This document shows, piece after piece, positions 2,969 through 13,435 of a stretch of DNA of 18,965 bases. Source of the DNA: a virus (lineage: Duplodnaviria; Heunggongvirae; Uroviricota; Caudoviricetes); IMG/VR virus record IMGVR_UViG_2537561689_000013; one strand, given 5' to 3'. Every line of letters begins with the position of its first letter. The stretch's first letter is position 1. Under the pieces are notes generated by a model. That model had not been told where the DNA came from. It did no database searches and saw only the letters and a list, made by a program, of their open reading frames with translations. The position numbers and the translations under genes were made by a program.

Positions 2969-2995
2969 CCCGGCTGCAATATGAGGGAATGCAGA

Positions 2996-4273
2996 ATGAT
3001 TTCACGCTGGAAATGGATGCTGAAGCAGACATTTAAAAAACTATGGTTCAGGGCAACGTTATTCGCAATTGTCGCAATAATAACGGCCCTTTTATCAATT
3101 CTTTTTAAATCAATGATACCTGAGTCGGTTTCCGTGAAGGTTGGTGCGGAAGCAGTCGATAACATTCTGAACATACTGGCATCGAGTATGCTGGCAGTGA
3201 CCACATTTTCGCTGAGCATCATGGTCACAGCCTACGGTTCAGCCACTACTAATGTGACTCCCAGAGCTACTCGTTTAGTTGTTGAAGACGTCACCACACA
3301 AAATGTACTGGCCACCTTCATCGGTTCTTTTCTCTTCAGTCTGGTAGGGATTATTGCCCTCAATATGGGAGCTTATGGAGAAAGGGGGAGAGTCATTTTA
3401 TTCATTGTAACACTGGTTGTCATTGCCTTAATCCTCATCACATTGCTTCGCTGGATACAGCATTTGACCTCTCTGGGGAGGGTTGGTGAGACAACGGCAA
3501 AAGTAGAACAGGCGGCCATCGAAACATTTATTGCGAGAGCAAGAAATCCCTGTCTCGGCGGATATCCATGGCTTGAGAACAATGAACAGCCGAAAGGAAC
3601 GGTTGCAGTTTATCCGAAAAAGATTGGCTATGTTGAATATGTTGATATGGTGAAACTCAGCAAGCTGCTGACCAATGATCCCCGTCATGTATACCTCGTG
3701 GCGCAGCCGGGCAGTTTCATACATCCGTCCACGCCAGTTTTGTACCTGAGTCAGGGCCAGGAGTCATCAATCAGCACCGATTTACTTGAGACGATTATTG
3801 TCTCGGATGTACGTTCATTTGCTCAGGACCCCCGATTTTGTCTTAGCGTCATGGCCGAAATAGCCTGCCGAGCCCTTTCCCCCGCAGTGAACGATCCTGG
3901 AACCGCCATTGATGTCATTGGCAGAGGTGTACGTATACTTTCCGCTTACGCGCAGAATAAATCTGATGAAATAGAAGTGAAATATCCTTCTGTACATGTT
4001 GCACCACTTCAGAATAACGATCTACTTGAAGACTTTTTCTCACCTGTTGCGCGCGATGGTGCCAGTATGAGGGAAATTCAGATAAGGGTCCTTAAAGGAC
4101 TGTCGATGCTGAGTAAGGGTTGGCCTGGAATTTTTGCTGAAGCCGCACAAACCCTAGCATTTGAAACATTAGAGCATGCTACTCGTGCTGACCATATAGA
4201 TTCTGACAGATATCTAATAAAATCAATTTATTATAATTTATTTAGTGGCGAAGATTCTAATAAAAAACCATAG
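2996..4273 (+). CDS. DUF2254-like membrane protein (4 N-terminal TM helices plus soluble C-terminal domain)
   Basis: ORF 2981..4273. The preferred start is ATG 2996, because GAGGGA at 2983-2988 is a good SD for it. Hydrophobic N-terminal third; the SPAVNDPGTAID motif resembles the conserved motif I recall for DUF2254 proteins. Family assignment is tentative. Confidence 0.7.
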   Translation: MISRWKWMLKQTFKKLWFRATLFAIVAIITALLSILFKSMIPESVSVKVGAEAVDNILNILASSMLAVTTFSLSIMVTAYGSATTNVTPRATRLVVEDVTTQNVLATFIGSFLFSLVGIIALNMGAYGERGRVILFIVTLVVIALILITLLRWIQHLTSLGRVGETTAKVEQAAIETFIARARNPCLGGYPWLENNEQPKGTVAVYPKKIGYVEYVDMVKLSKLLTNDPRHVYLVAQPGSFIHPSTPVLYLSQGQESSISTDLLETIIVSDVRSFAQDPRFCLSVMAEIACRALSPAVNDPGTAIDVIGRGVRILSAYAQNKSDEIEVKYPSVHVAPLQNNDLLEDFFSPVARDGASMREIQIRVLKGLSMLSKGWPGIFAEAAQTLAFETLEHATRADHIDSDRYLIKSIYYNLFSGEDSNKKP

Positions 4274-4512
4274 TTGCGGAGCAAGCGATACGGTTGTTGG
4301 CAAGTCAAGGGCAAAGCATTCGCGTGAGAGTGGGCGTCTGCTTTGTGCCAGAAGCGGACATTGCGGCGTTACGGCACGTTAGGTCAGATATTTAAATGCA
4401 CATGGTCCGCTTGTGGCGGAAGGATACTTACAAGAGTTGGTGAGAGATAGTAAAATCAATATGAAAATTAAAATTCGGCAATAATTCCTGATATAGTCAT
4501 CTTAATGAACAT

Positions 4513-4539
4513 AAAAACTATCACAATAGGATAGTTTTT
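4513..4539. terminator. Perfect 10-bp inverted repeat (AAAAACTATC-acaatag-GATAGTTTTT) between convergent genes; possible bidirectional terminator
   Basis: Palindrome seen directly; sits 17 bp downstream of the minus-strand 231-aa gene. The stem is AT-rich, so terminator strength is uncertain. Confidence 0.4.
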
Positions 4540-4555
4540 ATGTCATACTTGTTAG

Positions 4556-5251
4556 TTAATCACTTAAGGAATGAAGTGAGGCTCGTTGTGCAGAGGTTAA
4601 GCTAAGGAGGATTTTTTCTCGATACTCAGGTGCAAAGGAAAAGAAAACATCAGGAAAAATTCTTATGATAGTTGATATCATAGTCTTAACCACCTTATCA
4701 ATCACCTTCGAAATATTATCTATTTTAACCAAGTCTATTTCGGGAAAAACATTTAAAGCTTTTATGTGAGCCATTTCTTTTACAGTAGCTGTATGTACGT
4801 GACTGCATAACGAAGAGTATTCAGCTTTTAAAGTTTCATGTAGTAGAGGATTTTTTTTGAAGACAGGATGTTCCCCAGTTTGTTCAATTACCTTAAACAA
4901 TGATTTTTCTTCAAGTATTGAAGGATCTAGTAAGCAACCGATTGATTTTAAAGAATTTTCAATATAACTTCGCATCATTAGATTTGCTGGTTTGTATGCA
5001 CCATTTATAACCATAAACATAGCTGTACCAAGGTCAGATGAAGCTTCTTGCAATCGCTCCAATGAGTTGGCGTCTATTTTCTCCTTGGAGAAATGATACA
5101 AACAGTAAACAAGGCACATAAAAGAATAATATCTCTTATGTATCATGCTTATTTTCCCTCTTGAGTTAATATTCTCGAAAACATTTTTTAATTTATATTC
5201 AGAGAAATAAGTAACTAACTCAGTGAAATCGCTGTTTACTTCTCTCGACAT
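4556..5251 (-). CDS. Hypothetical protein (231 aa), third gene of the AT-rich operon; no recognisable family
   Basis: Long ORF in a region of about 30% GC; start lies 2 nt after the stop of the upstream gene. No catalytic motif recognised by eye. Confidence 0.65.
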   Translation of the reverse strand: MSREVNSDFTELVTYFSEYKLKNVFENINSRGKISMIHKRYYSFMCLVYCLYHFSKEKIDANSLERLQEASSDLGTAMFMVINGAYKPANLMMRSYIENSLKSIGCLLDPSILEEKSLFKVIEQTGEHPVFKKNPLLHETLKAEYSSLCSHVHTATVKEMAHIKALNVFPEIDLVKIDNISKVIDKVVKTMISTIIRIFPDVFFSFAPEYREKILLSLTSAQRASLHSLSD

Positions 5252-5253
5252 TG

Positions 5254-5760
5254 TTAGTCCTTATTGAATATATCTTTTATAACTTCATTCCAGTCATATA
5301 TCTCATTTTGAGCGCTAGAAAGGTTCTTCCTCTCTTTTATTCTACTCAAAACTAGAGGGTTATTTGACATTGAATTGATAATATTATAAGCCTTACCTAA
5401 ATCGGATGAGTTTTTCTCGTGAACGTCACACACGATTATGCCGATCATTTCCTCTCTAGATCTTTTTTCAGGCCTGCTGATTTCGATACCTAACATGCGT
5501 GCAAAATCATCTATATCTTTATTTTTTTGGAAGAGATCTTTGTCTAATAAAATCCTCGGAAGATACCCAACAAGGAAACCTTTAATATCATTTTTTTTGG
5601 ACTTTGAATTTCTTTCGTTAACTTCTAAATTATCAGTATAACTATCTTGAAGTAATTCAATAAAGTTGATTCTTGATAATTTTTTTGAAATAAAGGAAAA
5701 CTCCTCTAAAAAGTTTAACAGTTGCTTAATTTCTTTTGAGTTATTTTTTTTGTCAGTCAT
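5254..5760 (-). CDS. Hypothetical protein (168 aa), Lys/Asn-rich, second gene of the AT-rich operon; no recognisable family
   Basis: ORF whose ATG overlaps the stop of the upstream ParA-like gene (ATGA overlap at 5757-5760), implying translational coupling. Confidence 0.65.
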   Translation of the reverse strand: MTDKKNNSKEIKQLLNFLEEFSFISKKLSRINFIELLQDSYTDNLEVNERNSKSKKNDIKGFLVGYLPRILLDKDLFQKNKDIDDFARMLGIEISRPEKRSREEMIGIIVCDVHEKNSSDLGKAYNIINSMSNNPLVLSRIKERKNLSSAQNEIYDWNEVIKDIFNKD

Positions 5761-6587
5761 AAGTCACCTACTCTAGAGAGAAGTTCGTCAGTAATTTTAG
5801 ACAGCGAAAACTTCATATCCTCATCCGTTAAATTGTTAATAAATAAGCCTCTTGTTTGATTTCTTGCCAACTCAGTACGTTTGCTCAAATATGATTTAAA
5901 GATCTTATTACGCCAACGTTTTTGATTATTGAAGTAACGAAGACTTTCCTCATATAAATTACTATTACCTTCAACCATATTAAAAACTATGCCCGCACAT
6001 TCAATCTTAAGATCGAAATTTTCTCTCTTCTCATTTATAATGCTATCTAATAGATCGATACCAGTGATCGAAAGAGGATCGGGTTTGGCTGGAATGAGGT
6101 AATAATCAGATGCAATTAATGCGCTGGACATCCAAACTGATGGGGTTGGTGGGGTATCAATTATGACATAATCATAGTCATTTTCATGGATTTTAAGAAA
6201 GCGTCTAAGCTTGTTTTCTATCCCTTCTCCTGGTTTCATTTCAATTTTATATAGCCCAAGGCTTCCGGGAACAATGTGAAAATTATCATTTAATTGAATT
6301 GGTGTTATATCGGCTAATTCTTTAGGTGTGTTAACTAAAGGACCAGTCATTGTAGATAGTCGAATTTTTGAACTATAAAAAATATCACATATGCTATCGC
6401 CTCCGCTTTTCATATGTGCAACATATTTGCTTGTATCCATTACACATTGCGTTGCGTTAAATTGTGGGTCGATATCTATTAATAATATTTTTTGCCCAAG
6501 TTTATCTGAAAGATGATTAGCAATATTGGTAGCCAATGTTGACTTACCAACGCCACCTTTCATATTGATTAAGCTAATAACTTTCAA
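5757..6587 (-). CDS. ParA/MinD-superfamily P-loop ATPase (deviant Walker A), first gene of the AT-rich operon
   Basis: N-terminal MKVISLINMKGGVGKSTLATNIA (KGGxGKST deviant Walker A), DIDPQ motif, Walker B-like YVIIDTPP. No N-terminal HTH extension, so it resembles small type Ib ParA/MinD-like ATPases. Confidence 0.8.
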   Translation of the reverse strand: MKVISLINMKGGVGKSTLATNIANHLSDKLGQKILLIDIDPQFNATQCVMDTSKYVAHMKSGGDSICDIFYSSKIRLSTMTGPLVNTPKELADITPIQLNDNFHIVPGSLGLYKIEMKPGEGIENKLRRFLKIHENDYDYVIIDTPPTPSVWMSSALIASDYYLIPAKPDPLSITGIDLLDSIINEKRENFDLKIECAGIVFNMVEGNSNLYEESLRYFNNQKRWRNKIFKSYLSKRTELARNQTRGLFINNLTDEDMKFSLSKITDELLSRVGDL

Positions 6588-6827
6588 TCTTCTTGCTCCT
6601 GTTTTGATTAACGCTAAGCTTTTTCATCAGCATTGAAATTTAACATGTGTTTTACAAACTTATGTCTTATCACTACCTTATCATTTTTTACATACACCAT
6701 AAATATTTTTAACTAAAAATTTTTGGTTTTCAACCTGAAATCTTTATCTTTAAAAACAAAACATTACAATATTTTTAGTAAGATACCTTACCTAATGTAA
6801 TGTGAATGGCTCAATTTTGATTAACAC
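6588..6827 (-). promoter_or_regulatory. Very AT-rich leader, presumed promoter region of the ParA-like operon
   Basis: About 240 bp of >75% AT immediately upstream of the operon start. No specific -35/-10 assignment made. Confidence 0.3.
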
Positions 6828-7094
6828 TTAAGCTATGTTAATAATGGTTTTGTAAGTGTGATGAGGGTTCCATATGAAGAAGTGATTTCCCGAACAATAC
6901 AACATGAATATCATCCTCGTAGTCGGTGTTTCTTCACATGAACTCTGTCGCAAATACGCTATATGAAACGTGGCAAGATGAATGTACCTGAGGTTATCAA
7001 TCTTAAACCGCTTGAGAGTACGCCCTGATCCTGCCCGTTGATAAACTAACTGCATTGTTTGTAATGCTTCATCGGTGGTGAGAACAAGTTTCAT
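6828..7094 (-). CDS. Hypothetical 88-aa ORF, possibly a remnant of a disrupted gene at the island/prophage junction
   Basis: ORF track only. The N-terminal half looks protein-like, but the C-terminal part runs into AT-rich sequence; no family recognised. Confidence 0.25.
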   Translation of the reverse strand: MKLVLTTDEALQTMQLVYQRAGSGRTLKRFKIDNLRYIHLATFHIAYLRQSSCEETPTTRMIFMLYCSGNHFFIWNPHHTYKTIINIA

Positions 7095-7299
7095 ACTTCC
7101 GCTTCTCGCTCAAAGCGGACTAGAAGGTTAGCTTGCGTCGGACTTGGCGTATTTAAAGAAGTACTGGTGGTGACTGGTTGTTGTGTTCCATTTCTACAGA
7201 ACAAAATCACAGAAACTATACCCAATAGTTGTATCTCATCAATGATGAGACAGCCTCATATTTATCAGGACTGGTGTACGTCCAATACAGGAGGTTGTC

Positions 7300-7389: not shown

Positions 7390-7600
7390 TTTTATATTGG
7401 CGAGGTAACGGGAGTTAAGTAGAATGGCTGCGGGTGCTTGAGGCTATCTGTCTCAGGCATGAACACCAAAGGCAGATAGAGAAAAGCCCCAGTTAACATT
7501 ACGCGTCCTGCAAGACGCTTAACATTAATCTGAGGCTCAATCTATGAACGGCAAATCTAGGTTAGCCTCTTACGTGCCGAAAGGCAAGGAGAAGCAGGCT

Positions 7601-7756
7601 ATGAAGCAGCAAAAGGCGATGTTAATCGCCCTGATCGTCATCTGTTTAACCGTCATAGTGACGGCACTGGTAACGAGGAAAGACCTCTGCGAGGTACGAA
7701 TCCGAACCGGCCAGACGGAGGTCGCTGTCTTCACAGCTTACGAACCTGAGGAGTAA
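7601..7756 (+). CDS. hokD: Hok/Gef-family type I toxin (HokD/RelF-like)
   Basis: MKQQKAMLIALIVICLTVIVTALVTRKDLCEVRIRTGQTEVAVFTAYEPEE matches the Hok family and, from memory, is closest to HokD. The ORF-track ORF 7544..7756 is the same frame with an upstream extension. Confidence 0.8.
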   Translation: MKQQKAMLIALIVICLTVIVTALVTRKDLCEVRIRTGQTEVAVFTAYEPEE

Positions 7757-8202: not shown

Positions 8203-9249
8203 GTGCGGGTATTACTTCGACCTGTTCTGGTACCGGAACTCGGGCTGGTGATCGTTAAGCCGGGCCGGGAATCCATGCCGGTATTCCACAATACCCGGGT
8301 ACTGGTGGAGCCGGAACCGAAAAGCATGCGTAATCTGCCGTCCGGGGTCGTTCCTGCCGTTCGCCAGCCGCTAGTGGAAGACAAAACATTGCTGCCGTTT
8401 TTCAGTAACGCACGGGTGATTCGTGCTGCTGGTGGTGCTGGTGCATTGTCTGACTGGCTGTTGCGCCATATTAAATCCTGCCAGTGGCCTCATGGTGATT
8501 ACCATCACAGCGAAACCGTCATACATCGTTACGGTGCTGGCGCGATGGTGTTGTGCTGGCACTGTGACAACCAGTTGCGTGACCAGTCCTCCGAATCACT
8601 TGAGCAACTTGCTCACCAAAACCTGTCAGCATGGATGATTGATGTCATGCGCCATGCAATGAATGGCACACAGGAGCGGGAATTATCGCTGGCTGAATTA
8701 TCCTGGTGGGCTGTCTGCAATCAGGTGGCGGACGCACTACCGGAGGTAGTATTACGTCGTTCTCTGGGGTTACGTGCGGAAAAAATTCGCTCGGTGTACC
8801 GCGAAAGCGACATCGTACCGGGAGAGCAGACCGCCACCAGCATACTGAAGCAGCGCACAAAAAATCTTGCGCCGCTGCCTCACGCCCACCAGCAAAATCC
8901 ACCACAGGAAAAGACGGTGGTCAGCATTGCTGTTGATCCGGAGTCTCCGGAATCTTTCATGAAGCGACCTAAACGTCGCCGTTGGGTAAATGAGAAATAT
9001 ACGCGCTGGGTAAAGACACAGCCGTGTGCGTGTTGTGATAAGCCAGCCGACGATCCCCATCACCTGATTGGTCATGGTCAGGGCGGAATAGGGACAAAAT
9101 CCCACGATATTTTCACGCTACCGCTGTGTCGGGAGCATCACAACGAGCTTCATGCGGATCCGCTGGCGTTCGAAGAAAAGCATGGTTCCCAGATTGATTT
9201 AATTTTTCGTTTTCTTGATCGCGCCTTTGCAACCGGCGTGCTCGGGTAA
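8203..9249 (+). CDS. Lambdoid nin-region protein, YdfU/DUF968-like, with C-terminal Cys/His-rich HNH-like motif
   Basis: GTG start with GGAGG SD 4 nt upstream. C-terminus carries CACCDK...PHHLIGHGQGG...CREHHNELH. Length (348 aa) and position before rusA/Q fit the YdfU/DUF968 proteins as I recall them. Confidence 0.7.
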   Translation: MRVLLRPVLVPELGLVIVKPGRESMPVFHNTRVLVEPEPKSMRNLPSGVVPAVRQPLVEDKTLLPFFSNARVIRAAGGAGALSDWLLRHIKSCQWPHGDYHHSETVIHRYGAGAMVLCWHCDNQLRDQSSESLEQLAHQNLSAWMIDVMRHAMNGTQERELSLAELSWWAVCNQVADALPEVVLRRSLGLRAEKIRSVYRESDIVPGEQTATSILKQRTKNLAPLPHAHQQNPPQEKTVVSIAVDPESPESFMKRPKRRRWVNEKYTRWVKTQPCACCDKPADDPHHLIGHGQGGIGTKSHDIFTLPLCREHHNELHADPLAFEEKHGSQIDLIFRFLDRAFATGVLG

Positions 9250-9261
9250 AAGAGGTTACTG

Positions 9262-9633
9262 ATGCGTATAGAGTTTGTTTTGCCTTACCCGCCGACGGTG
9301 AACACCTACTGGCGTCGTCGTGGCAGCACATATTTTGTATCAAAAGCCGGTGAGCGTTATCGCCGGGATGTGGCACTTATTGTCCGCCAGCAGCGGCTGA
9401 AATTAAACCTGTCCGGAAGGCTGGCAATAAAAATTACTGCAGAGCCGCCGGATAAGCGCCGTCGGGACCTGGACAATATCCTGAAAGCACCGCTGGATGC
9501 ACTGACGCATGCGGGGCTTCTCATAGACGACGAGCAGTTTGATGAAATCAATATTGTGCGCGGTAAGCTCGTTCCTGGTGGTCGGCTGGGCGTGAAGATT
9601 TGCGAAATTAGAGGTGATAGTAATGGGGCGTGA
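9262..9633 (+). CDS. rusA: Crossover junction endodeoxyribonuclease RusA (Holliday junction resolvase)
   Basis: 123-aa protein with LPYPPTVNTYWRRRG and RRRDLDNILKAPLDAL motifs typical of RusA; AGAGG SD upstream. Confidence 0.85.
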   Translation: MRIEFVLPYPPTVNTYWRRRGSTYFVSKAGERYRRDVALIVRQQRLKLNLSGRLAIKITAEPPDKRRRDLDNILKAPLDALTHAGLLIDDEQFDEINIVRGKLVPGGRLGVKICEIRGDSNGA

Positions 9634-9976
9634 TATGTATGAGGTTTTAGACCGCTGGGGGGCATGGGCTGCAGCAGAAAATAGTGGTGTCGATTGGCAA
9701 CCGATAGCAGCGGGCTTCAAGGGGCTTTTACCTCATGGTAAAAAGTCACGGATTCAGTGTGATGATGACGAAGGCATTATGATAGACAGTTGTGTGGCTC
9801 GGTTGAGAAGGTATAAACCAGAGGAATATGAGCTCATCATAGCCCACTTTGTTATTGGTATCTCATTACGCACTATTGCCAAAAAGAGAAGGTGTTCAGA
9901 TGGCACGATTAGAAAGGAATTACAAACTGCAATTGGTTTTGTAGAGGGTATTACGAGCGTTATTGCATGTAAATAA
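9623..9976 (+). CDS. Q: Late-gene antitermination protein Q (933W/Stx-phage-type Q family)
   Basis: LDRWGAWAA...IAAGFKGLL...KSRIQCDDDEGIMIDSCVARLRR...CSDGTIRKELQTAIGFVEG resembles Stx-phage Q from memory. Start chosen at ATG 9623 (GAGGTGA SD) rather than the track's 9614. Confidence 0.75.
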   Translation: MGRDMYEVLDRWGAWAAAENSGVDWQPIAAGFKGLLPHGKKSRIQCDDDEGIMIDSCVARLRRYKPEEYELIIAHFVIGISLRTIAKKRRCSDGTIRKELQTAIGFVEGITSVIACK

Positions 9977-9981
9977 AAGCT

Positions 9982-10010
9982 AAAAGCCACCGTAGTGGCT
10001 TTTAGCATTT
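9982..10010. terminator. Hairpin with flanking A- and T-runs immediately after Q; candidate bidirectional terminator
   Basis: AAAAGCCAC-cgta-GTGGCTTTT, then AGCATTTT. Confidence 0.55.
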
Positions 10011-10182
10011 TAGGATTGTGCAGGTAATGTTTTGTTCAATTTAGTAAAGAAGTTAGATTGGCTTGTTACAGTACGTCGACTCTTTCCAGAAGTACTCAAC
10101 TGAAAGAAATCATTGATGCTTTTGGGTTGAGTTCTTTCATAGGCTTGCTTAAGTGACATGTGTTCCCCTTGTCTATTTGTTG

Positions 10183-11466
10183 CTATGACCGTGAAAAGTA
10201 GTGATGGTTCAGTTCTTTTGCAAAATAGTGCTTACGTTTAACCCAGATAAAACCATCAGCTTTAGAAATGATTGCAACATCTATGGGGCCTCCCACTGTT
10301 TCAGTATCATCGGAGACCTTGCGCTTGAAAGCGGTTAAATTTACTAATGATTCAGCCATATAAGCTAAATCTTGCTTGGGTAAAAACTCGATCATATTTA
10401 CGACTTTGTCAACATAGTTTTCTCGGACAAAGCTATCAATACGCCCCTTGCAATCGGAAACAGTTCTGCGCACTACATCAACTATAGCATCCTTGGCTCC
10501 TTCGATATCTGAAGTGGGCACCAAATCTGTGATTACTGAATCAATACCATCAAGTAAATCGCCGATAGAACGTTGATACTCAGCATGAAGATTTTGGATA
10601 AGATGTGAACTAGCTCCTTGCATGAAAGCAGAAACTTCATCCTCTTGCGCAAAGGGAGTCACGCCGCAATTAGGAGTGATGCAGCACTTGTCAGCATCTG
10701 TGGTTTTCCTTATTTTATCATTAAAGAAGCCACAAACTTCATATGATAATACTTTAGGGTAATAGTCTTTATCGCCATAACCTGCAATCACAATCCCAGA
10801 GACGGAACCAATATCACTTTGCTTGCATATCATAGCTGCCAATACATCACTAACTGCTTTTGTCAACTGTGGAGTTATGGATATTGAATCAAAGTCACTA
10901 AACTTTTGAGCAATGATGCGTTGGGTAATTGATGAAGCATAGGTTTGGGCTGCTTGTTCATCATCCGGAGTAAAACCATCAAAGTAATTAATATCAGATA
11001 ATTTTGTAAGGAGATCGTTGCAATAATTCGTGAGGTCTGTAACAAATTGATTCTTATCGAAGTTAACGAGATATGTTGGTTCGAGACCTTCAGAAAAAGC
11101 ATCAACAAGCATGCTGAATACAATCTCGCTCAGGAAGTGATAAAGATGAGCCTCACGCATACCTGGTGTGATGATTGATTTAGCTGACTGTAGATAATTG
11201 AAGAAATCCTCAGCATATTCCTCCAAAGAGTCAAAACATTTAGAGCCTAAATCCTTTCTATAAGCCTTAATGATAAGCTCCCATGGAGCTGTGCAGAGAT
11301 CACCAGTTCCATATACCATCAAACCTACAGGATGATGTTTAGTGAGAGCGAAAAGCTTTTCAGCGCCATTATAGATTTTATGTTTGCCGCCTCCAGAAAT
11401 CGTTACAGCTGAATCTGCGGCTAAAGCTACTGCGGTCTTGTTAAATACGGCTATTTCTGCTGTCAT
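10183..11466 (-). CDS. Moron protein (427 aa) with HslV/proteasome-beta-like (Ntn-hydrolase, peptidase T1-like) N-terminal domain and uncharacterised C-terminal domain
   Basis: Starts MTAEIAVFNKTAVALAADSAVT: Thr directly after Met, Asp at mature position 17, then GTGD and GYGD glycine-rich segments. Compared by eye with HslV/proteasome-beta sequences recalled from memory. Opposite strand to the late genes. Confidence 0.8.
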   Translation of the reverse strand: MTAEIAVFNKTAVALAADSAVTISGGGKHKIYNGAEKLFALTKHHPVGLMVYGTGDLCTAPWELIIKAYRKDLGSKCFDSLEEYAEDFFNYLQSAKSIITPGMREAHLYHFLSEIVFSMLVDAFSEGLEPTYLVNFDKNQFVTDLTNYCNDLLTKLSDINYFDGFTPDDEQAAQTYASSITQRIIAQKFSDFDSISITPQLTKAVSDVLAAMICKQSDIGSVSGIVIAGYGDKDYYPKVLSYEVCGFFNDKIRKTTDADKCCITPNCGVTPFAQEDEVSAFMQGASSHLIQNLHAEYQRSIGDLLDGIDSVITDLVPTSDIEGAKDAIVDVVRRTVSDCKGRIDSFVRENYVDKVVNMIEFLPKQDLAYMAESLVNLTAFKRKVSDDTETVGGPIDVAIISKADGFIWVKRKHYFAKELNHHYFSRS

Positions 11467-11574
11467 TTTTTACATAGGGTTTATATGTTGTGTAATGAGA
11501 AAAATACAAAAAAATTAACGCGTACGCAAAAATTCTTGTAATCTGTTAAGAGTGGTTACTTCGCCACACAGCTT

Positions 11575-11601
11575 AAACCCGCCGTCGAGCGGGTTTTTTT
11601 G
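11575..11601 (+). terminator. Rho-independent terminator on the plus strand inside the divergent intergenic region
   Basis: AAACCCGC-cgtcga-GCGGGTTT followed by TTTTT. Confidence 0.6.
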
Positions 11602-11698
11602 TACCTGTAAACTTGGTGCAGTACGGTAAACACGCTGGTGGTAGTGAATACTGACTTTTTATCTTGCTGGCTTTTTAGACAAGAGTTATTGGTATGTC

Positions 11699-11917
11699 AT
11701 GTTAACCAGAAGGGAAAAAGACATGCTAAAACAGCAAGATATGACAGAAACGGCGAAAGTTGTTTTTAATGAATTAAGCATCGAACCGGCAACAGTCGGG
11801 GAGATTGCACAAAACACATACCTTTCACGCGAACGCTGTCAGTTAATACTGACCCAGTTGGTTATGGCGGGGCTGGCAGATTACCAGTTCGGCTGTTACA
11901 GACGTCTTCAGCAATGA
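11699..11917 (+). CDS. Hypothetical small protein (72 aa), possible DNA-binding/controller-like protein upstream of the methyltransferase
   Basis: ORF track only; weak SD; the true start may be an internal Met. No family recognised. Confidence 0.4.
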   Translation: MLTRREKDMLKQQDMTETAKVVFNELSIEPATVGEIAQNTYLSRERCQLILTQLVMAGLADYQFGCYRRLQQ

Positions 11918-12066: not shown

Positions 12067-13113
12067 ATGAAAAATACTGTAAAAATAAACAGTGTTGATT
12101 TAATCAACGCTGATTGCCTGCATTTTATTCAGTCCCTGCCTGATGATTCCATTGACCTGATTGTTACCGATCCGCCTTACTTCAAGGTGAAACCCAACGG
12201 TTGGGACAATCAGTGGAAAGGGGACGAAGATTACCTTAAGTGGCTGGACCACTGTCTGGCCCAGTTCTGGCGGGTGTTGAAACCTGCCGGAAGCCTTTAC
12301 CTGTTCTGTGGGCATCGCCTGGCATCTGATATCGAAATCATGATGCGTGAACGCTTTAATGTGCTGAACCACATTATCTGGGCGAAGCCGTCCGGACGCT
12401 GGAACGGATGCAACAAGGAAAGCCTGCGGGCGTATTTCCCGGCAACAGAGCGCATTCTGTTTGCTGAACATTATCAGGGGCCATACCAGCCCAAAAATGA
12501 CGGCTATGCGGCAAAGGGGCGCGAGCTTAAACAGTGCGTCATGGCCCCGCTGATTTCTTACTTTCGTGATGCGCGAGAATCTCTGGGAATAACATCAAAA
12601 CAGATAGCGGAAGCCACCGGAAAGAAAAACATGGCGTCACACTGGTTTGGTGCCAGTCAGTGGCAGTTGCCGAACGAGGCTGATTACAAAAAACTTCAGG
12701 CGCTGTTCGCGCGTGTTGCAGCAGAAAAACACCAGCGCGGGGAGCTGGAAAAGCCGCACCACCAGCTGGTCAGCACATACAGTGAACTGAACCGGCAATA
12801 TGCCAGCCTGCAGGAGGAGTATAAATCCCTGCGGCGTTATTTTTCCGTATCAGCTGCTGTTCCGTATACGGATGTCTGGACGCACAAGCCTGTGCAGTAT
12901 TATCCAGGCAAACATCCCTGTGAAAAACCGGCAGATATGTTGCGTCAGATAATTACTGCCAGCAGTCGCCCCGGTGATTTGGTCGCTGATTTTTTTATGG
13001 GGTCTGGCTCAACAATAAAAGCAGCACTTTCACTGGGACGTCGCGCAATTGGCGTGGAACTGGAAGAAGAGAGATTTAATCAGACTGTAACTGAAATAAA
13101 AAATAATCGTTAA
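12067..13113 (+). CDS. DNA methyltransferase, DPPY-motif class (N6-adenine or N4-cytosine), phage-type
   Basis: DLIVTDPPY (motif IV) near the N-terminus and DFFMGSGST (motif I) near the C-terminus, i.e. a beta-class amino-MTase arrangement. Comparable MTase genes sit downstream of Q in Stx-type lambdoid phages. Confidence 0.9.
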   Translation: MKNTVKINSVDLINADCLHFIQSLPDDSIDLIVTDPPYFKVKPNGWDNQWKGDEDYLKWLDHCLAQFWRVLKPAGSLYLFCGHRLASDIEIMMRERFNVLNHIIWAKPSGRWNGCNKESLRAYFPATERILFAEHYQGPYQPKNDGYAAKGRELKQCVMAPLISYFRDARESLGITSKQIAEATGKKNMASHWFGASQWQLPNEADYKKLQALFARVAAEKHQRGELEKPHHQLVSTYSELNRQYASLQEEYKSLRRYFSVSAAVPYTDVWTHKPVQYYPGKHPCEKPADMLRQIITASSRPGDLVADFFMGSGSTIKAALSLGRRAIGVELEEERFNQTVTEIKNNR

Positions 13114-13281: not shown

Positions 13282-13357
<76 letters not shown>

Positions 13358-13360
13358 TAT

Positions 13361-13435
<75 letters not shown>

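Follow-up and report, generated by a model that had tools for sequence, protein, structure and literature searches.

Three consecutive genes are encoded on the minus strand of the analysed window, a stretch of 18,965 nucleotides: gene A (5757..6587), encoding a ParA/Soj-class deviant Walker-A ATPase of 276 aa; gene B (5254..5760), an ORF encoding an all-helical protein of 168 aa that is proposed as an adaptor; and gene C (4556..5251), encoding a 231-aa protein of HEPN-superfamily fold that is proposed as the effector. The A stop and the B start share 4 nt (ATGA), only 2 nt lie between the B stop and the C start, and the three genes are translationally coupled; gene A starts with TTG and carries an AGGAG 8 nt upstream. 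The ORFs lie exactly where the initial annotation had placed three tightly coupled genes, and RefSeq holds the same three CDSs, with B and C annotated only as hypothetical proteins. The span 4556–6827 that was given to the operon holds for the three genes, while its 6588–6827 portion is a non-coding, AT-rich upstream region (GC 0.26).

The described sharp GC drop was evident, with 0.29–0.35 from ∼4400 to ∼7000 versus 0.44–0.56 in the flanks (400-nt windows), and with 0.341, 0.300, 0.330 and 0.258 for A, B, C and the upstream spacer, respectively, i.e. 0.26–0.34 at the operon compared with 0.463 for the whole window. The operon promoter is presumed to lie on the minus strand within 6588..6827; a promoter scan returned sigma-70-like hexamer matches on this strand at 6841–6814 and 6733–6705, and such matches upstream of A were not enriched over shuffled sequence. 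Alignment of the upstream regions of four loci displayed no conserved operator, and the E. coli upstream region was not conserved in the Enterobacter, Pectobacterium or L002 homologues. Starting 13 nt past the C stop, a perfect hairpin (4509..4543, minus strand; inverted repeat I2, 14-bp stem of 100% complementarity, 7-nt loop) is followed on the minus strand by a T-rich stretch and is probably the operon terminator, although the terminator-like call of the scan tool is for the plus strand. Searching 4300–7200 for a centromere or iterons yielded short two-copy matches only and no repeat array. A 14-mer occurs twice near the operon (6602–6615 and 6815–6828), possibly by chance.

The islet had been delimited at ∼4440–6830, which is AT-rich as claimed but smaller than the mobile unit. 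The limits of the mobile cassette, 4333..7120 (2,788 bp), were set by a second E. coli copy in another setting (L099, positions 8933–11719, in a CP4-like island of another strain), to which it is 99.6% identical. Homology to cassette-free prophages ends at ∼4362 on the left and restarts at ∼7095–7106 on the right. A left-end hairpin with the 17-mer GTGCCAGAAGCGGACAT lies at the left junction (4336..4361, plus strand; 17-mer at 4345–4361), and this 17-mer coincides with the homology breakpoint in L097; in L099 it is found at 8946–8962, and a second copy in the same orientation with 2 mismatches is found at 11747–11763, 28 nt beyond the cassette right end. The junction sequences define a related hairpin at the right end, TTCCGCTT-N8-AAGCGGAC (7097..7120, plus strand), and the right end, once reverse-complemented, agrees with the left end at 21 of 30 positions. 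The junction 17-mer was also considered as a genome-wide repeat and was rejected as such, with about one occurrence per genome. Upstream of gene A, the cassette additionally holds an 88-aa ORF (6828..7094, minus strand) that appears in the ORF listing and not in the RefSeq annotation; it is confined to the E. coli copies of the cassette and had no family match in Pfam, NCBIfam, PHROGs or PADLOC.

Among 5426 complete E. coli genomes, 133 (2.5%) were found to carry the cassette, and all 134 E. coli records covered 100% of the cassette query at an identity of at least 99%. At 99.6% identity it occurs in two unrelated E. coli contexts, namely the Rac-like prophage of this window and the CP4-like island, and the same prophage slot in another strain holds metabolic cargo instead; together with its presence in only these 133 genomes, this supports the horizontal acquisition that had been proposed for the islet. 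About 120 of the 133 carriers have the CP4-like island, in which the cassette adjoins a type I restriction-modification (R-M) system with embedded darTG, in the gene order hsdM-hsdS-darT-darG-hsdR, so that the suspected defence-island setting was verified as well. Other copies of the triad adjoin Eco29kI R-M, or Mrr with CcdAB; a Blautia prophage copy lies in a lysogeny module between an ImmA-repressor pair and integrases, and one copy is placed between replication and Q/nin genes. The two closest ORFs on each side of 50 loci included short pAgo/SIR2-APAZ, DRT reverse transcriptase, EcoRII, BglII, SoFic, PD-Lambda-2, AbiTii, Schlafen, PDC-S01/S52/S70, integrases and transposases, in mixed neighbourhoods with many housekeeping genes; the defence-gene association is a qualitative one.

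Beyond E. coli, related genome loci were gathered with the alignment of the gene A product. Of the 74 loci with enough room downstream to be assessed, which represent about ten phyla, 69 kept the A-B-C order (61 A-B-C, and 8 with a B-sized ORF between A and C), and the triad was found in 56 of 80 viral contigs and in all the contexts checked by hand, i.e. P. aeruginosa, Elizabethkingia, Bacteroides, Calidifontibacillus, Blautia, Enterobacter and Pectobacterium. The C family comprises 390 clusters at 50% identity. A search of the GenBank phage collection at the DNA level and by tblastn of C gave no match. The divergences of A, B and C are correlated (Mantel r 0.76–0.80, p 0.001), and the median pairwise identities (A 0.49, B 0.32 and C 0.26) form a conservation gradient A > B > C that is typical of an engine plus effector. 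Because homologues occur in the same order across phyla and with invariant residues, A, B and C are judged to be real genes and not chance ORFs, and by the same sequence comparisons the triad appears as a widespread module of multiple phyla and viral contigs, not an E. coli oddity. A few loci lack C or hold fragments; swapping of the effector was considered for these and rejected, since the neighbours of the C-less A or A-B loci are unrelated (MCP, PD-(D/E)XK, SusD) and resemble decay.

The product of gene A proved to be the deviant-Walker-A ATPase that it had been taken for. Its matches to Pfam AAA_31 (1.4e-37; 129.7 bits, cut-off 27) and CbiA (1.4e-18; 67.5 bits, cut-off 25.4) were above the gathering scores, and it matched the ParA-like phrog_164 as well (5.7e-60). 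Its deviant Walker A motif, NMKGGVGKST with the signature lysine, occupies residues 8–17; among the triad-linked homologues, KGGVGKS (with K10, G11, G12, V13 and K15) and the Walker B motif IIDTPP are invariant, and so are the Walker A′/B aspartates D38, D40 and D144. The closest solved structures are the pSM19035 delta protein, Soj and ParF, with the delta protein as the best PDB match in a single-sequence search (3.3e-21), and the alignments of A to Soj and to the delta protein span the full length. By these comparisons, A is a catalytically intact ParA/Soj-type ATPase. The position aligned with the Soj R189-type DNA-binding arginine is not conserved in A, and the adjacent R237 is invariant. 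Against the NCBIfam model ParA_partition (NF041546), A scored 90.1 bits with a cut-off of 180, and against all other NCBIfam equivalogs it fell far under their cut-offs.

Both partner proteins had been described as unassignable, which remains so for B, a protein without any family assignment, and no longer for C, which has a HEPN-superfamily fold. Searches of B and C against Pfam, NCBIfam and PADLOC gave no assignment and their PHROGs matches were function-unknown only; in the same profile collections, no match of the distant B and C homologues reached threshold. B has a short, basic, Lys-rich N-terminal tail and no HTH, RHH or ParB features. In C, the four-helix up-and-down core of the HEPN fold was found, and its structural matches include HepT (5yep_B), with the sacsin HEPN domain among the top ones; Foldseek of C against viral structures (BFVD) gave nothing below E 0.07. 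C itself had no Pfam match, while among 127 C-family members, irrespective of gathering scores, DUF5677 was matched by 40 (best 3.5e-5), PF05168 by 3 (best 9.5e-5) and DUF4145 by 2; the C-family profile had no match to PDB sequences even at E 10. The family has an invariant polar set, R94, E98, Y145 and H153, and keeps E69, S72, D73 and K87 in at least 90% of its members. Catalytic HEPN RNases are defined by the motif Rx4-6H, and this motif is absent from C, i.e. no conserved R lies 4–6 residues before a conserved H in 127–150 sequences; R94 and H153 are 59 residues apart and on different predicted helices. Non-catalytic HEPN domains exist, e.g. that of sacsin, so C, lacking Rx4-6H, could be a non-catalytic binder of this kind. 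A transmembrane effector was also considered for C and rejected, because its maximum 19-residue hydropathy is only 1.28. A DUF5677 ORF alone gave no phage protection in Enterococcus (PMC12632615).

No system model of PADLOC-DB v2.0.0 (2023) was matched by A, B or C, the sole PADLOC match being that of the A P-loop to PDC-M28B (3.8e-5, 37 residues), and the B and C homologues of P. aeruginosa and Elizabethkingia had no PADLOC-DB match. The triad is named by no PADLOC, Pfam or NCBIfam model and by no paper found in the literature searched; specifically, it is not named in Rousset 2022, Hochhauser 2023, the metagenomic-selection paper or the available part of the DefensePredictor supplements. The initial statement that no named system has this composition therefore stands for PADLOC-DB v2 and has to be qualified by a prediction from 2013, when dyads of a ParA/Soj ATPase and a MAE_18760-family HEPN protein were predicted as toxin-antitoxin systems by Anantharaman, Makarova, Burroughs, Koonin and Aravind (PMC3710099). 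These dyads are the closest precedent for the triad. Both combine a ParA/Soj-class ATPase and a HEPN gene in an operon on mobile or conflict-associated DNA, and the same logic has been proposed for both, with HEPN as the predicted toxin and the ATPase as its predicted nucleotide-dependent controller. The MAE_18760 dyad has two genes, whereas three are present here, with the middle protein B in the 69 loci; compared by description, the MAE_18760 HEPN retains Rx4-6H, with frequent fusions to other domains, whereas C lacks the motif.

Taken together, the triad is most likely toxin-antitoxin-like or anti-phage in nature and is less likely to serve DNA partition. We regard as an evenly balanced proposition the more specific arrangement of a toxin-antitoxin or abortive-infection-type conflict module, in which the HEPN effector C is placed under an ATP switch formed by the ParA and its adaptor (A-B). 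C would be the effector, most likely an RNA-directed nuclease by analogy with other HEPN toxins, A an ATP-dependent dimer switch and B the bridge from A to C, with the Lys-rich N-terminal tail of B stimulating the A ATPase as the tails of ParB, ParG and MinE do on ParA/MinD. In the resting cell, the A-B pair would hold C inactive; on infection by a phage, or once the element is lost, the nucleotide- or DNA-bound state of A would shift and C would be freed and arrest growth, so that the infection is aborted or element-free cells are killed. In favour of this arrangement are the intact ATPase motifs of A, the conserved and co-evolving unit, the R-M, darTG and other defence-gene surroundings, the absent partition features and the 2013 precedent; against it count the missing Rx4-6H of C, the lack of a PADLOC model match, the mixed neighbourhoods, the metabolic cargo of the prophage slot in another strain and the unprotective DUF5677 ORF of Enterococcus. 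The adaptor role of B and the contacts among A, B and C we purely infer, and a defence function is likewise what we infer for the triad.

Similar logic is found in other systems. In MntA-HepT (MNT-HEPN, type VII toxin-antitoxin), as is proposed for the triad, a small HEPN-fold effector is neutralised by a nucleotide-using partner whose gene lies just upstream; MntA-HepT is controlled by a minimal nucleotidyltransferase, by which the toxin is AMPylated, whereas the proposed controller of the triad is a ParA ATPase plus an extra adaptor, and HepT has Rx4-6H whereas C does not. In the PrrC/RloC anticodon nucleases, which are often found beside type I R-M, an NTPase switch gates a HEPN-class RNase in phage infection. 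There, nuclease and NTPase are fused and the NTPase domain is of ABC/SMC type, whereas A is a separate SIMIBI-class ParA with a proposed adaptor, and PADLOC searches gave no sequence relationship of the triad to PrrC/RloC.

The established role of ParA/MinD ATPases is that of motors that position DNA and protein cargo, and a non-canonical segregation or positioning system is the best-surviving alternative, which we consider unlikely. A would then be a nucleoid ParA motor, B a ParB/ParG/McdB-like adaptor that stimulates A via its basic N-terminus and C a DNA- or cargo-binding accessory or the cargo, by which an excised or episomal element is stabilised or positioned. A is a bona fide ParA whose closest solved relatives are partition ATPases, and the short basic tail of B is typical of ParA partners. 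As in type Ib partition (ParF-ParG of TP228, delta-omega of pSM19035), the gene of a short ParA that has no N-terminal HTH is followed by the gene of a small partner with such a tail; unlike in type Ib, an RHH/HTH centromere-binding protein and centromere repeats are absent, a third, HEPN-fold gene is present and nearly all copies lack an autonomous replicon. McdA-McdB and relatives likewise pair a ParA ATPase with a small, fast-evolving adaptor without recognisable domain, but these pairs adjoin cargo genes (carboxysomes, chemoreceptor arrays), whereas the triad resides on mobile elements and in defence islands and its third protein looks enzyme-like. The carriers point both ways: prophages and integrative elements with an episomal stage do carry the triad, and on the 5.8-kb Plesiomonas plasmid p11184 it lies directly behind rep, but almost every copy resides in a chromosome or an integrated prophage without a replicon of its own, C was found in just 1 of 72,556 plasmid records (a mislabelled chromosome aside), and the p11184 ParA gene carries a frameshift, with B and C intact. 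Furthermore, the surroundings of the operon are free of iterated or centromere-like repeats, the DNA upstream of it shows no conservation, the score of A is only half the ParA_partition cut-off, and the enzyme-like polar constellation on the HEPN fold of C would be needless for any partition system. The initial view that this is not a canonical parAB module holds: neither a partner of the ParB, HTH or RHH kind nor a centromere-like repeat array is present. For the conflict module, the location directly behind rep on p11184 means that a role in maintenance or addiction fits as well as defence.

As a quite improbable alternative, the triad could be a toxin-free regulatory module, in which C is a non-catalytic, HEPN-type nucleotide or RNA binder working with the A-B ATP switch on lysogeny, excision, replication or superinfection exclusion of the carrier element. 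The missing Rx4-6H and the sacsin match of C, the copy in the lysogeny module beside a repressor-ImmA pair and integrases, and that between replication and Q/nin genes conform to this; but the invariant R/E/Y/H set of C looks catalytic, the cassette is self-contained and moves as such from one element to another, unrelated one, and it is found outside any phage as well (the CP4-like island, bare chromosomal sites, the plasmid), which makes a carrier-specific regulatory role unlikely. That the three ORFs are remains in decay, or neighbours by chance, with no joint function, as the hypothetical-only annotation of B and C and the few loci with C missing or fragmented might suggest, has practically no probability left and is refuted by the conservation data, namely the full-length triad across phyla, the invariant residues, the tight coupling, the correlated divergence and the complete, at least 99% identical cassette in every E. 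coli record.

Returning to the preferred conflict module, its boldest form, that the triad is the first case of an immune system with a ParA/MinD-class ATPase at its core and represents a widespread defence family of many phyla absent from current catalogues, is possible but rather doubtful. A would in this case be an ATP switch, bound to the nucleoid or to DNA, that signals the state of the cellular DNA or a phage protein disturbing DNA, and the adaptor would mediate release of a HEPN-fold effector with a non-canonical R/E/Y/H active site. No experimentally defined immune or toxin-antitoxin system switched by a ParA/MinD ATPase was found in PADLOC-DB v2 or the literature searched. The triad is common, in about ten phyla and dozens of viral contigs, it is compact, as a 2.8-kb cassette beside R-M and DarTG, and its E. 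coli copy lends itself to direct testing with the usual host and phage panels. Should the triad prove to be a defence or addiction module, it would bear on the twelve-year-old prediction that ParA/Soj ATPases are antitoxins of HEPN toxins, provide a function for two protein families without Pfam or NCBIfam models, and represent a new sensor-switch principle for bacterial immunity.

The GC content falls to 0.29-0.35 between about 4400 and 7000 of the window against 0.44-0.56 in both flanks, as the initial annotation had described, and three minus-strand ORFs were found there exactly where it had placed them: gene A (5757-6587; 276 aa), with a TTG start preceded by AGGAG, gene B (5254-5760; 168 aa) and gene C (4556-5251; 231 aa). 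RefSeq calls the same three genes, as a "ParA family protein" and two "hypothetical proteins". A and B share an ATGA overlap, B and C are separated by 2 nt, and the three genes are translationally coupled; a hairpin with a perfect 14-bp stem (4509-4543) lies 3′ of C. The span earlier assigned to the operon, 4556-6827, is coding over 4556-6587, while the remaining 6588-6827 is non-coding DNA upstream of A. GC contents of A, B, C and this spacer were 0.341, 0.300, 0.330 and 0.258, respectively, versus 0.463 for the window. A two-copy 14-mer, TTTTGATTAAC(G/A)CT (6602-6615 and 6815-6828), flanks the AT-rich region upstream of A; no conservation of the pair was detected in homologous loci, and the two copies may mark an operator or match by chance.

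Protein A matched Pfam AAA_31 (1.4e-37), CbiA (1.4e-18) and phrog_164 (5.7e-60), and triad-linked homologues vary neither in the deviant Walker A motif, KGGVGKS, nor in the Walker A′ and B aspartates, so that the earlier reading of A as a deviant-Walker-A ATPase stands. The pSM19035 delta protein and Thermus thermophilus Soj were the nearest solved structures in a single-sequence search, and a profile search yielded one more ParA structure, 8ray. At E ≤1e-20, A had 2337 cluster hits, many about 50% identical in other phyla, and it scored under the cut-off of every NCBIfam equivalog (ParA_partition, 90 versus 180 bits). Judged by its sequence, A is an intact ParA/Soj-class ATPase. For B, nothing was found in Pfam, NCBIfam or PADLOC, and the sole match was the function-unknown phrog_12497. 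The B model consists of helices throughout (pLDDT 74.5), its C-terminal bundle being better defined; homologues in other phyla are 27-47% identical with twelve invariant residues, and a Lys-rich peptide opens every one of them.

Of the two partners initially called unassignable, B is thus without a family, whereas C is modelled as a HEPN fold with an enzyme-like set of invariant residues, to which sequence matches lend weak support. The C model is confident (pLDDT 84, pTM 0.80), and its sole PHROG match was phrog_12265, also function-unknown. Among 127 members of the C family, DUF5677 was matched by 40 (best 3.5e-5), PF05168 HEPN by three and DUF4145 by two. G84, R94, E98, Y145 and H153 are invariant across the family, and E69, S72, D73, Y86, K87, L148, C149 and P170 reach at least 90% conservation. 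No conserved Rx4-6H was present in the family, R94 and H153 lying on different predicted helices. A membrane protein was considered for C and ruled out. Word-indexed searching returned 12 clusters for B and only 18 for C, while running the C profile as a full HMM scan recovered 390 clusters (50% identity), almost all with lengths of 225-245 aa.

In every context opened, A (~276 aa), B (153-180 aa) and C (230-245 aa) occurred in the same order. The triad was found in a lambdoid prophage between the P gene and RusA/Q, in Enterobacter beside an Eco29kI restriction-modification (R-M) system, in a Pectobacterium integrase island with Mrr and CcdAB, in P. aeruginosa, Elizabethkingia and Bacteroides, in Calidifontibacillus beside serine recombinases and a toxin-antitoxin pair, and in a Blautia prophage between an ImmA-repressor pair and integrases. 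A ParA-signature scan of one genome per species yielded 80 loci, of which the 74 with room downstream were scored with three HMMs, one per gene product. A-B-C was identified in 61 of the 74, and A followed by C with B undetected in nine, eight of which hold a B-sized ORF (166-197 aa) in between; the ninth (L070) is fragmentary and has none. Three loci had A-B without C and one had A alone, and no alternative effector was seen in these exceptional loci. Hosts were Bacillota, Bacteroidota, Pseudomonadota, Planctomycetota, Verrucomicrobiota, Acidobacteriota, Desulfobacterota, Melainabacteria, Hydrogenedentota and one Nanoarchaeota MAG. The conservation of the triad excludes chance association or decay, to which we give almost no credence.

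Among 64 non-redundant triads, median pairwise identity decreased from A (0.49) through B (0.32) to C (0.26), and the three distance matrices were correlated (Mantel r 0.76-0.80, p 0.001). Thus the three genes are inherited and diverge together, with A the most and C the least constrained. A relative of A is encoded on 136 IMG/VR viral contigs, and in 56 of the best 80 a C-family gene lies directly downstream. Among them is a divergent clade (L113-L178), common in viral contigs, whose A is ~36-40% identical to the window protein and whose C-family gene is detectable only at E 1e-5 to 1e-10, which suggests from sequence that ParA-linked triads on phages form a broader superfamily. A Flavobacterium MAG (OZ260109.1) holds two triads (L026 and L061, at ~1.93 and 1.97 Mb), ~32 kb apart with equal HMM scores. 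Locus L013 (8001-9925) shares the upstream region and an identical ParA protein with the Bacteroides triad L012 and has in place of B and C two genes unrelated to them, one for 227 aa and one for 509 aa with Big_2, being either a deletion/replacement variant or an assembly artefact.

The window is E. coli chromosome within a Rac-like lambdoid prophage, ordered int, xis, exo; cI/cro, ydaT, replication genes; IS3, IS100 (copy end at 1-681); a BCCT transporter (929-2932) and a DUF2254 membrane protein (2981-4273); C-B-A; sok/hokD, DUF968, RusA, Q; and methyltransferase, tRNAs and lysis genes. The DUF2254 gene, whose homology ends at about 4360, is a separate cargo piece, since it was found in 1357 E. 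coli genomes on chromosomes and plasmids. The operon itself occurs at ≥99% identity in 133 of 5426 complete E. coli genomes, the right-hand junction of the window being common to only eight records; in ~120 genomes its location is a CP4-like island, where a YeeP-like GTPase gene flanks it on one side and hsdM-hsdS-darT-darG-hsdR on the other. Prophage and island contexts share a 2,788-bp stretch (4333-7120; 99.6% identity), and copies at ≥90% identity also occur in Klebsiella and Enterobacter. The operon is therefore carried by a compact, horizontally moving cassette, in line with the acquisition initially proposed.

The cassette ends bear related hairpins (4336-4361 and 7097-7120), and no recombinase was found within it. 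A 17-mer, GTGCCAGAAGCGGACAT, is located at its left end in the window; in the island copy (L099) it forms a direct repeat (8946-8962 and 11747-11763), the second just beyond the right end, and it recurs at the breakpoint of strain 90-1 (L097, 8365-8381), where LysR, GGCT, MFS and IS911 fill the same prophage slot instead. The site may serve for cassette exchange; a genome-wide repeat was ruled out. The cassette also holds, upstream of A, an 88-aa minus-strand ORF (6828-7094) of higher GC than the operon, restricted to E. coli cassette copies, with no family match or RefSeq annotation. Directly right of the cassette lie, on the plus strand, the sok antisense RNA (7432-7606; Rfam RF01794, 110 bits) and hokD (7601-7756), a type I toxin-antitoxin pair. 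A second low-GC patch (9800-11800; 0.37-0.40) holds a 427-aa hypothetical protein, WP_000123148.1 (10183-11466, minus strand), between the Q antiterminator and DNA methyltransferase (12067-13113) genes, which may be further prophage cargo or a defence candidate; RefSeq tRNA genes for Thr (13282-13354) and Gly (13361-13432) lie between the methyltransferase and lysis genes.

In a set of 50 loci, the two nearest ORFs per side (193 proteins) included, as signs of mobile elements, serine recombinases, integrases, DDE transposases, lambda P, VapE and a capsid protein; as defence proteins, short pAgo with SIR2-APAZ, DRT UG13b reverse transcriptase, EcoRII, BglII, methyltransferases, SoFic, PD-Lambda-2 A and B, CapP, AbiTii, Schlafen, PDC-S01/S52/S70, DUF4942 and DUF6988; and many housekeeping genes. 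Because of these defence neighbours and the E. coli R-M/DarTG neighbourhood, the surroundings have the defence-island flavour that was initially suspected, as read from raw neighbour lists without background correction. The triad also occurs on the 5.8-kb mobilizable MOBP Plesiomonas plasmid p11184 (L098, 3664-5734), directly after rep, whose stop the A start overlaps; a frameshift leaves A as two ORFs of 182 and 76 aa, followed by intact B (180 aa) and C (233 aa) genes, and a RelBE pair is also present.

We give about an even chance to a conflict module composed of a HEPN effector (C), a ParA switch (A) and a linker (B). A would act as an ATP-dependent dimer switch, and B would join A to C, its basic N-terminal tail stimulating A; ParB, ParG and MinE stimulate ParA/MinD proteins via such tails. 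Infection or element loss would alter the state of A and free C, probably RNA-directed as other HEPN toxins, leading to growth arrest. The missing Rx4-6H of C was counted against this model. A non-canonical partition or positioning system, to which the ParA ancestry of A, the basic tail of B and the p11184 copy would conform, is unlikely in view of the chromosomal locations, the lack of a centromere, a B without a DNA-binding fold and the presence of a HEPN protein. A module that regulates the carrier element without any toxin is slightly less likely still, since the cassette is at home in unrelated carriers.

The triad falls outside the partition equivalogs of NCBIfam and the named defence systems of PADLOC-DB v2 (2023), whose models did not match its proteins; no curated family covers B or C, which every source labels hypothetical, and no name was found in the searchable literature, some supplements of which are only partly searchable. 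This agrees with the initial view that no named system known to the annotator has this composition. The nearest precedent comes from Anantharaman and co-authors (2013; PMC3710099), who reported a "less common gene dyad" in which a ParA/Soj-like ATPase accompanies a MAE_18760-family HEPN gene, and predicted that the two form a toxin-antitoxin system whose antitoxin is the ATPase. The logic is common to both, but here there are three genes and the HEPN protein has no Rx4-6H. We propose that the triad may work like MNT-HEPN and other NTPase-gated HEPN systems. HEPN-effector conflict modules are known; what would be new is the proposed ParA switch with a dedicated adaptor, in a triad that is widespread and, in these sources, without a name.
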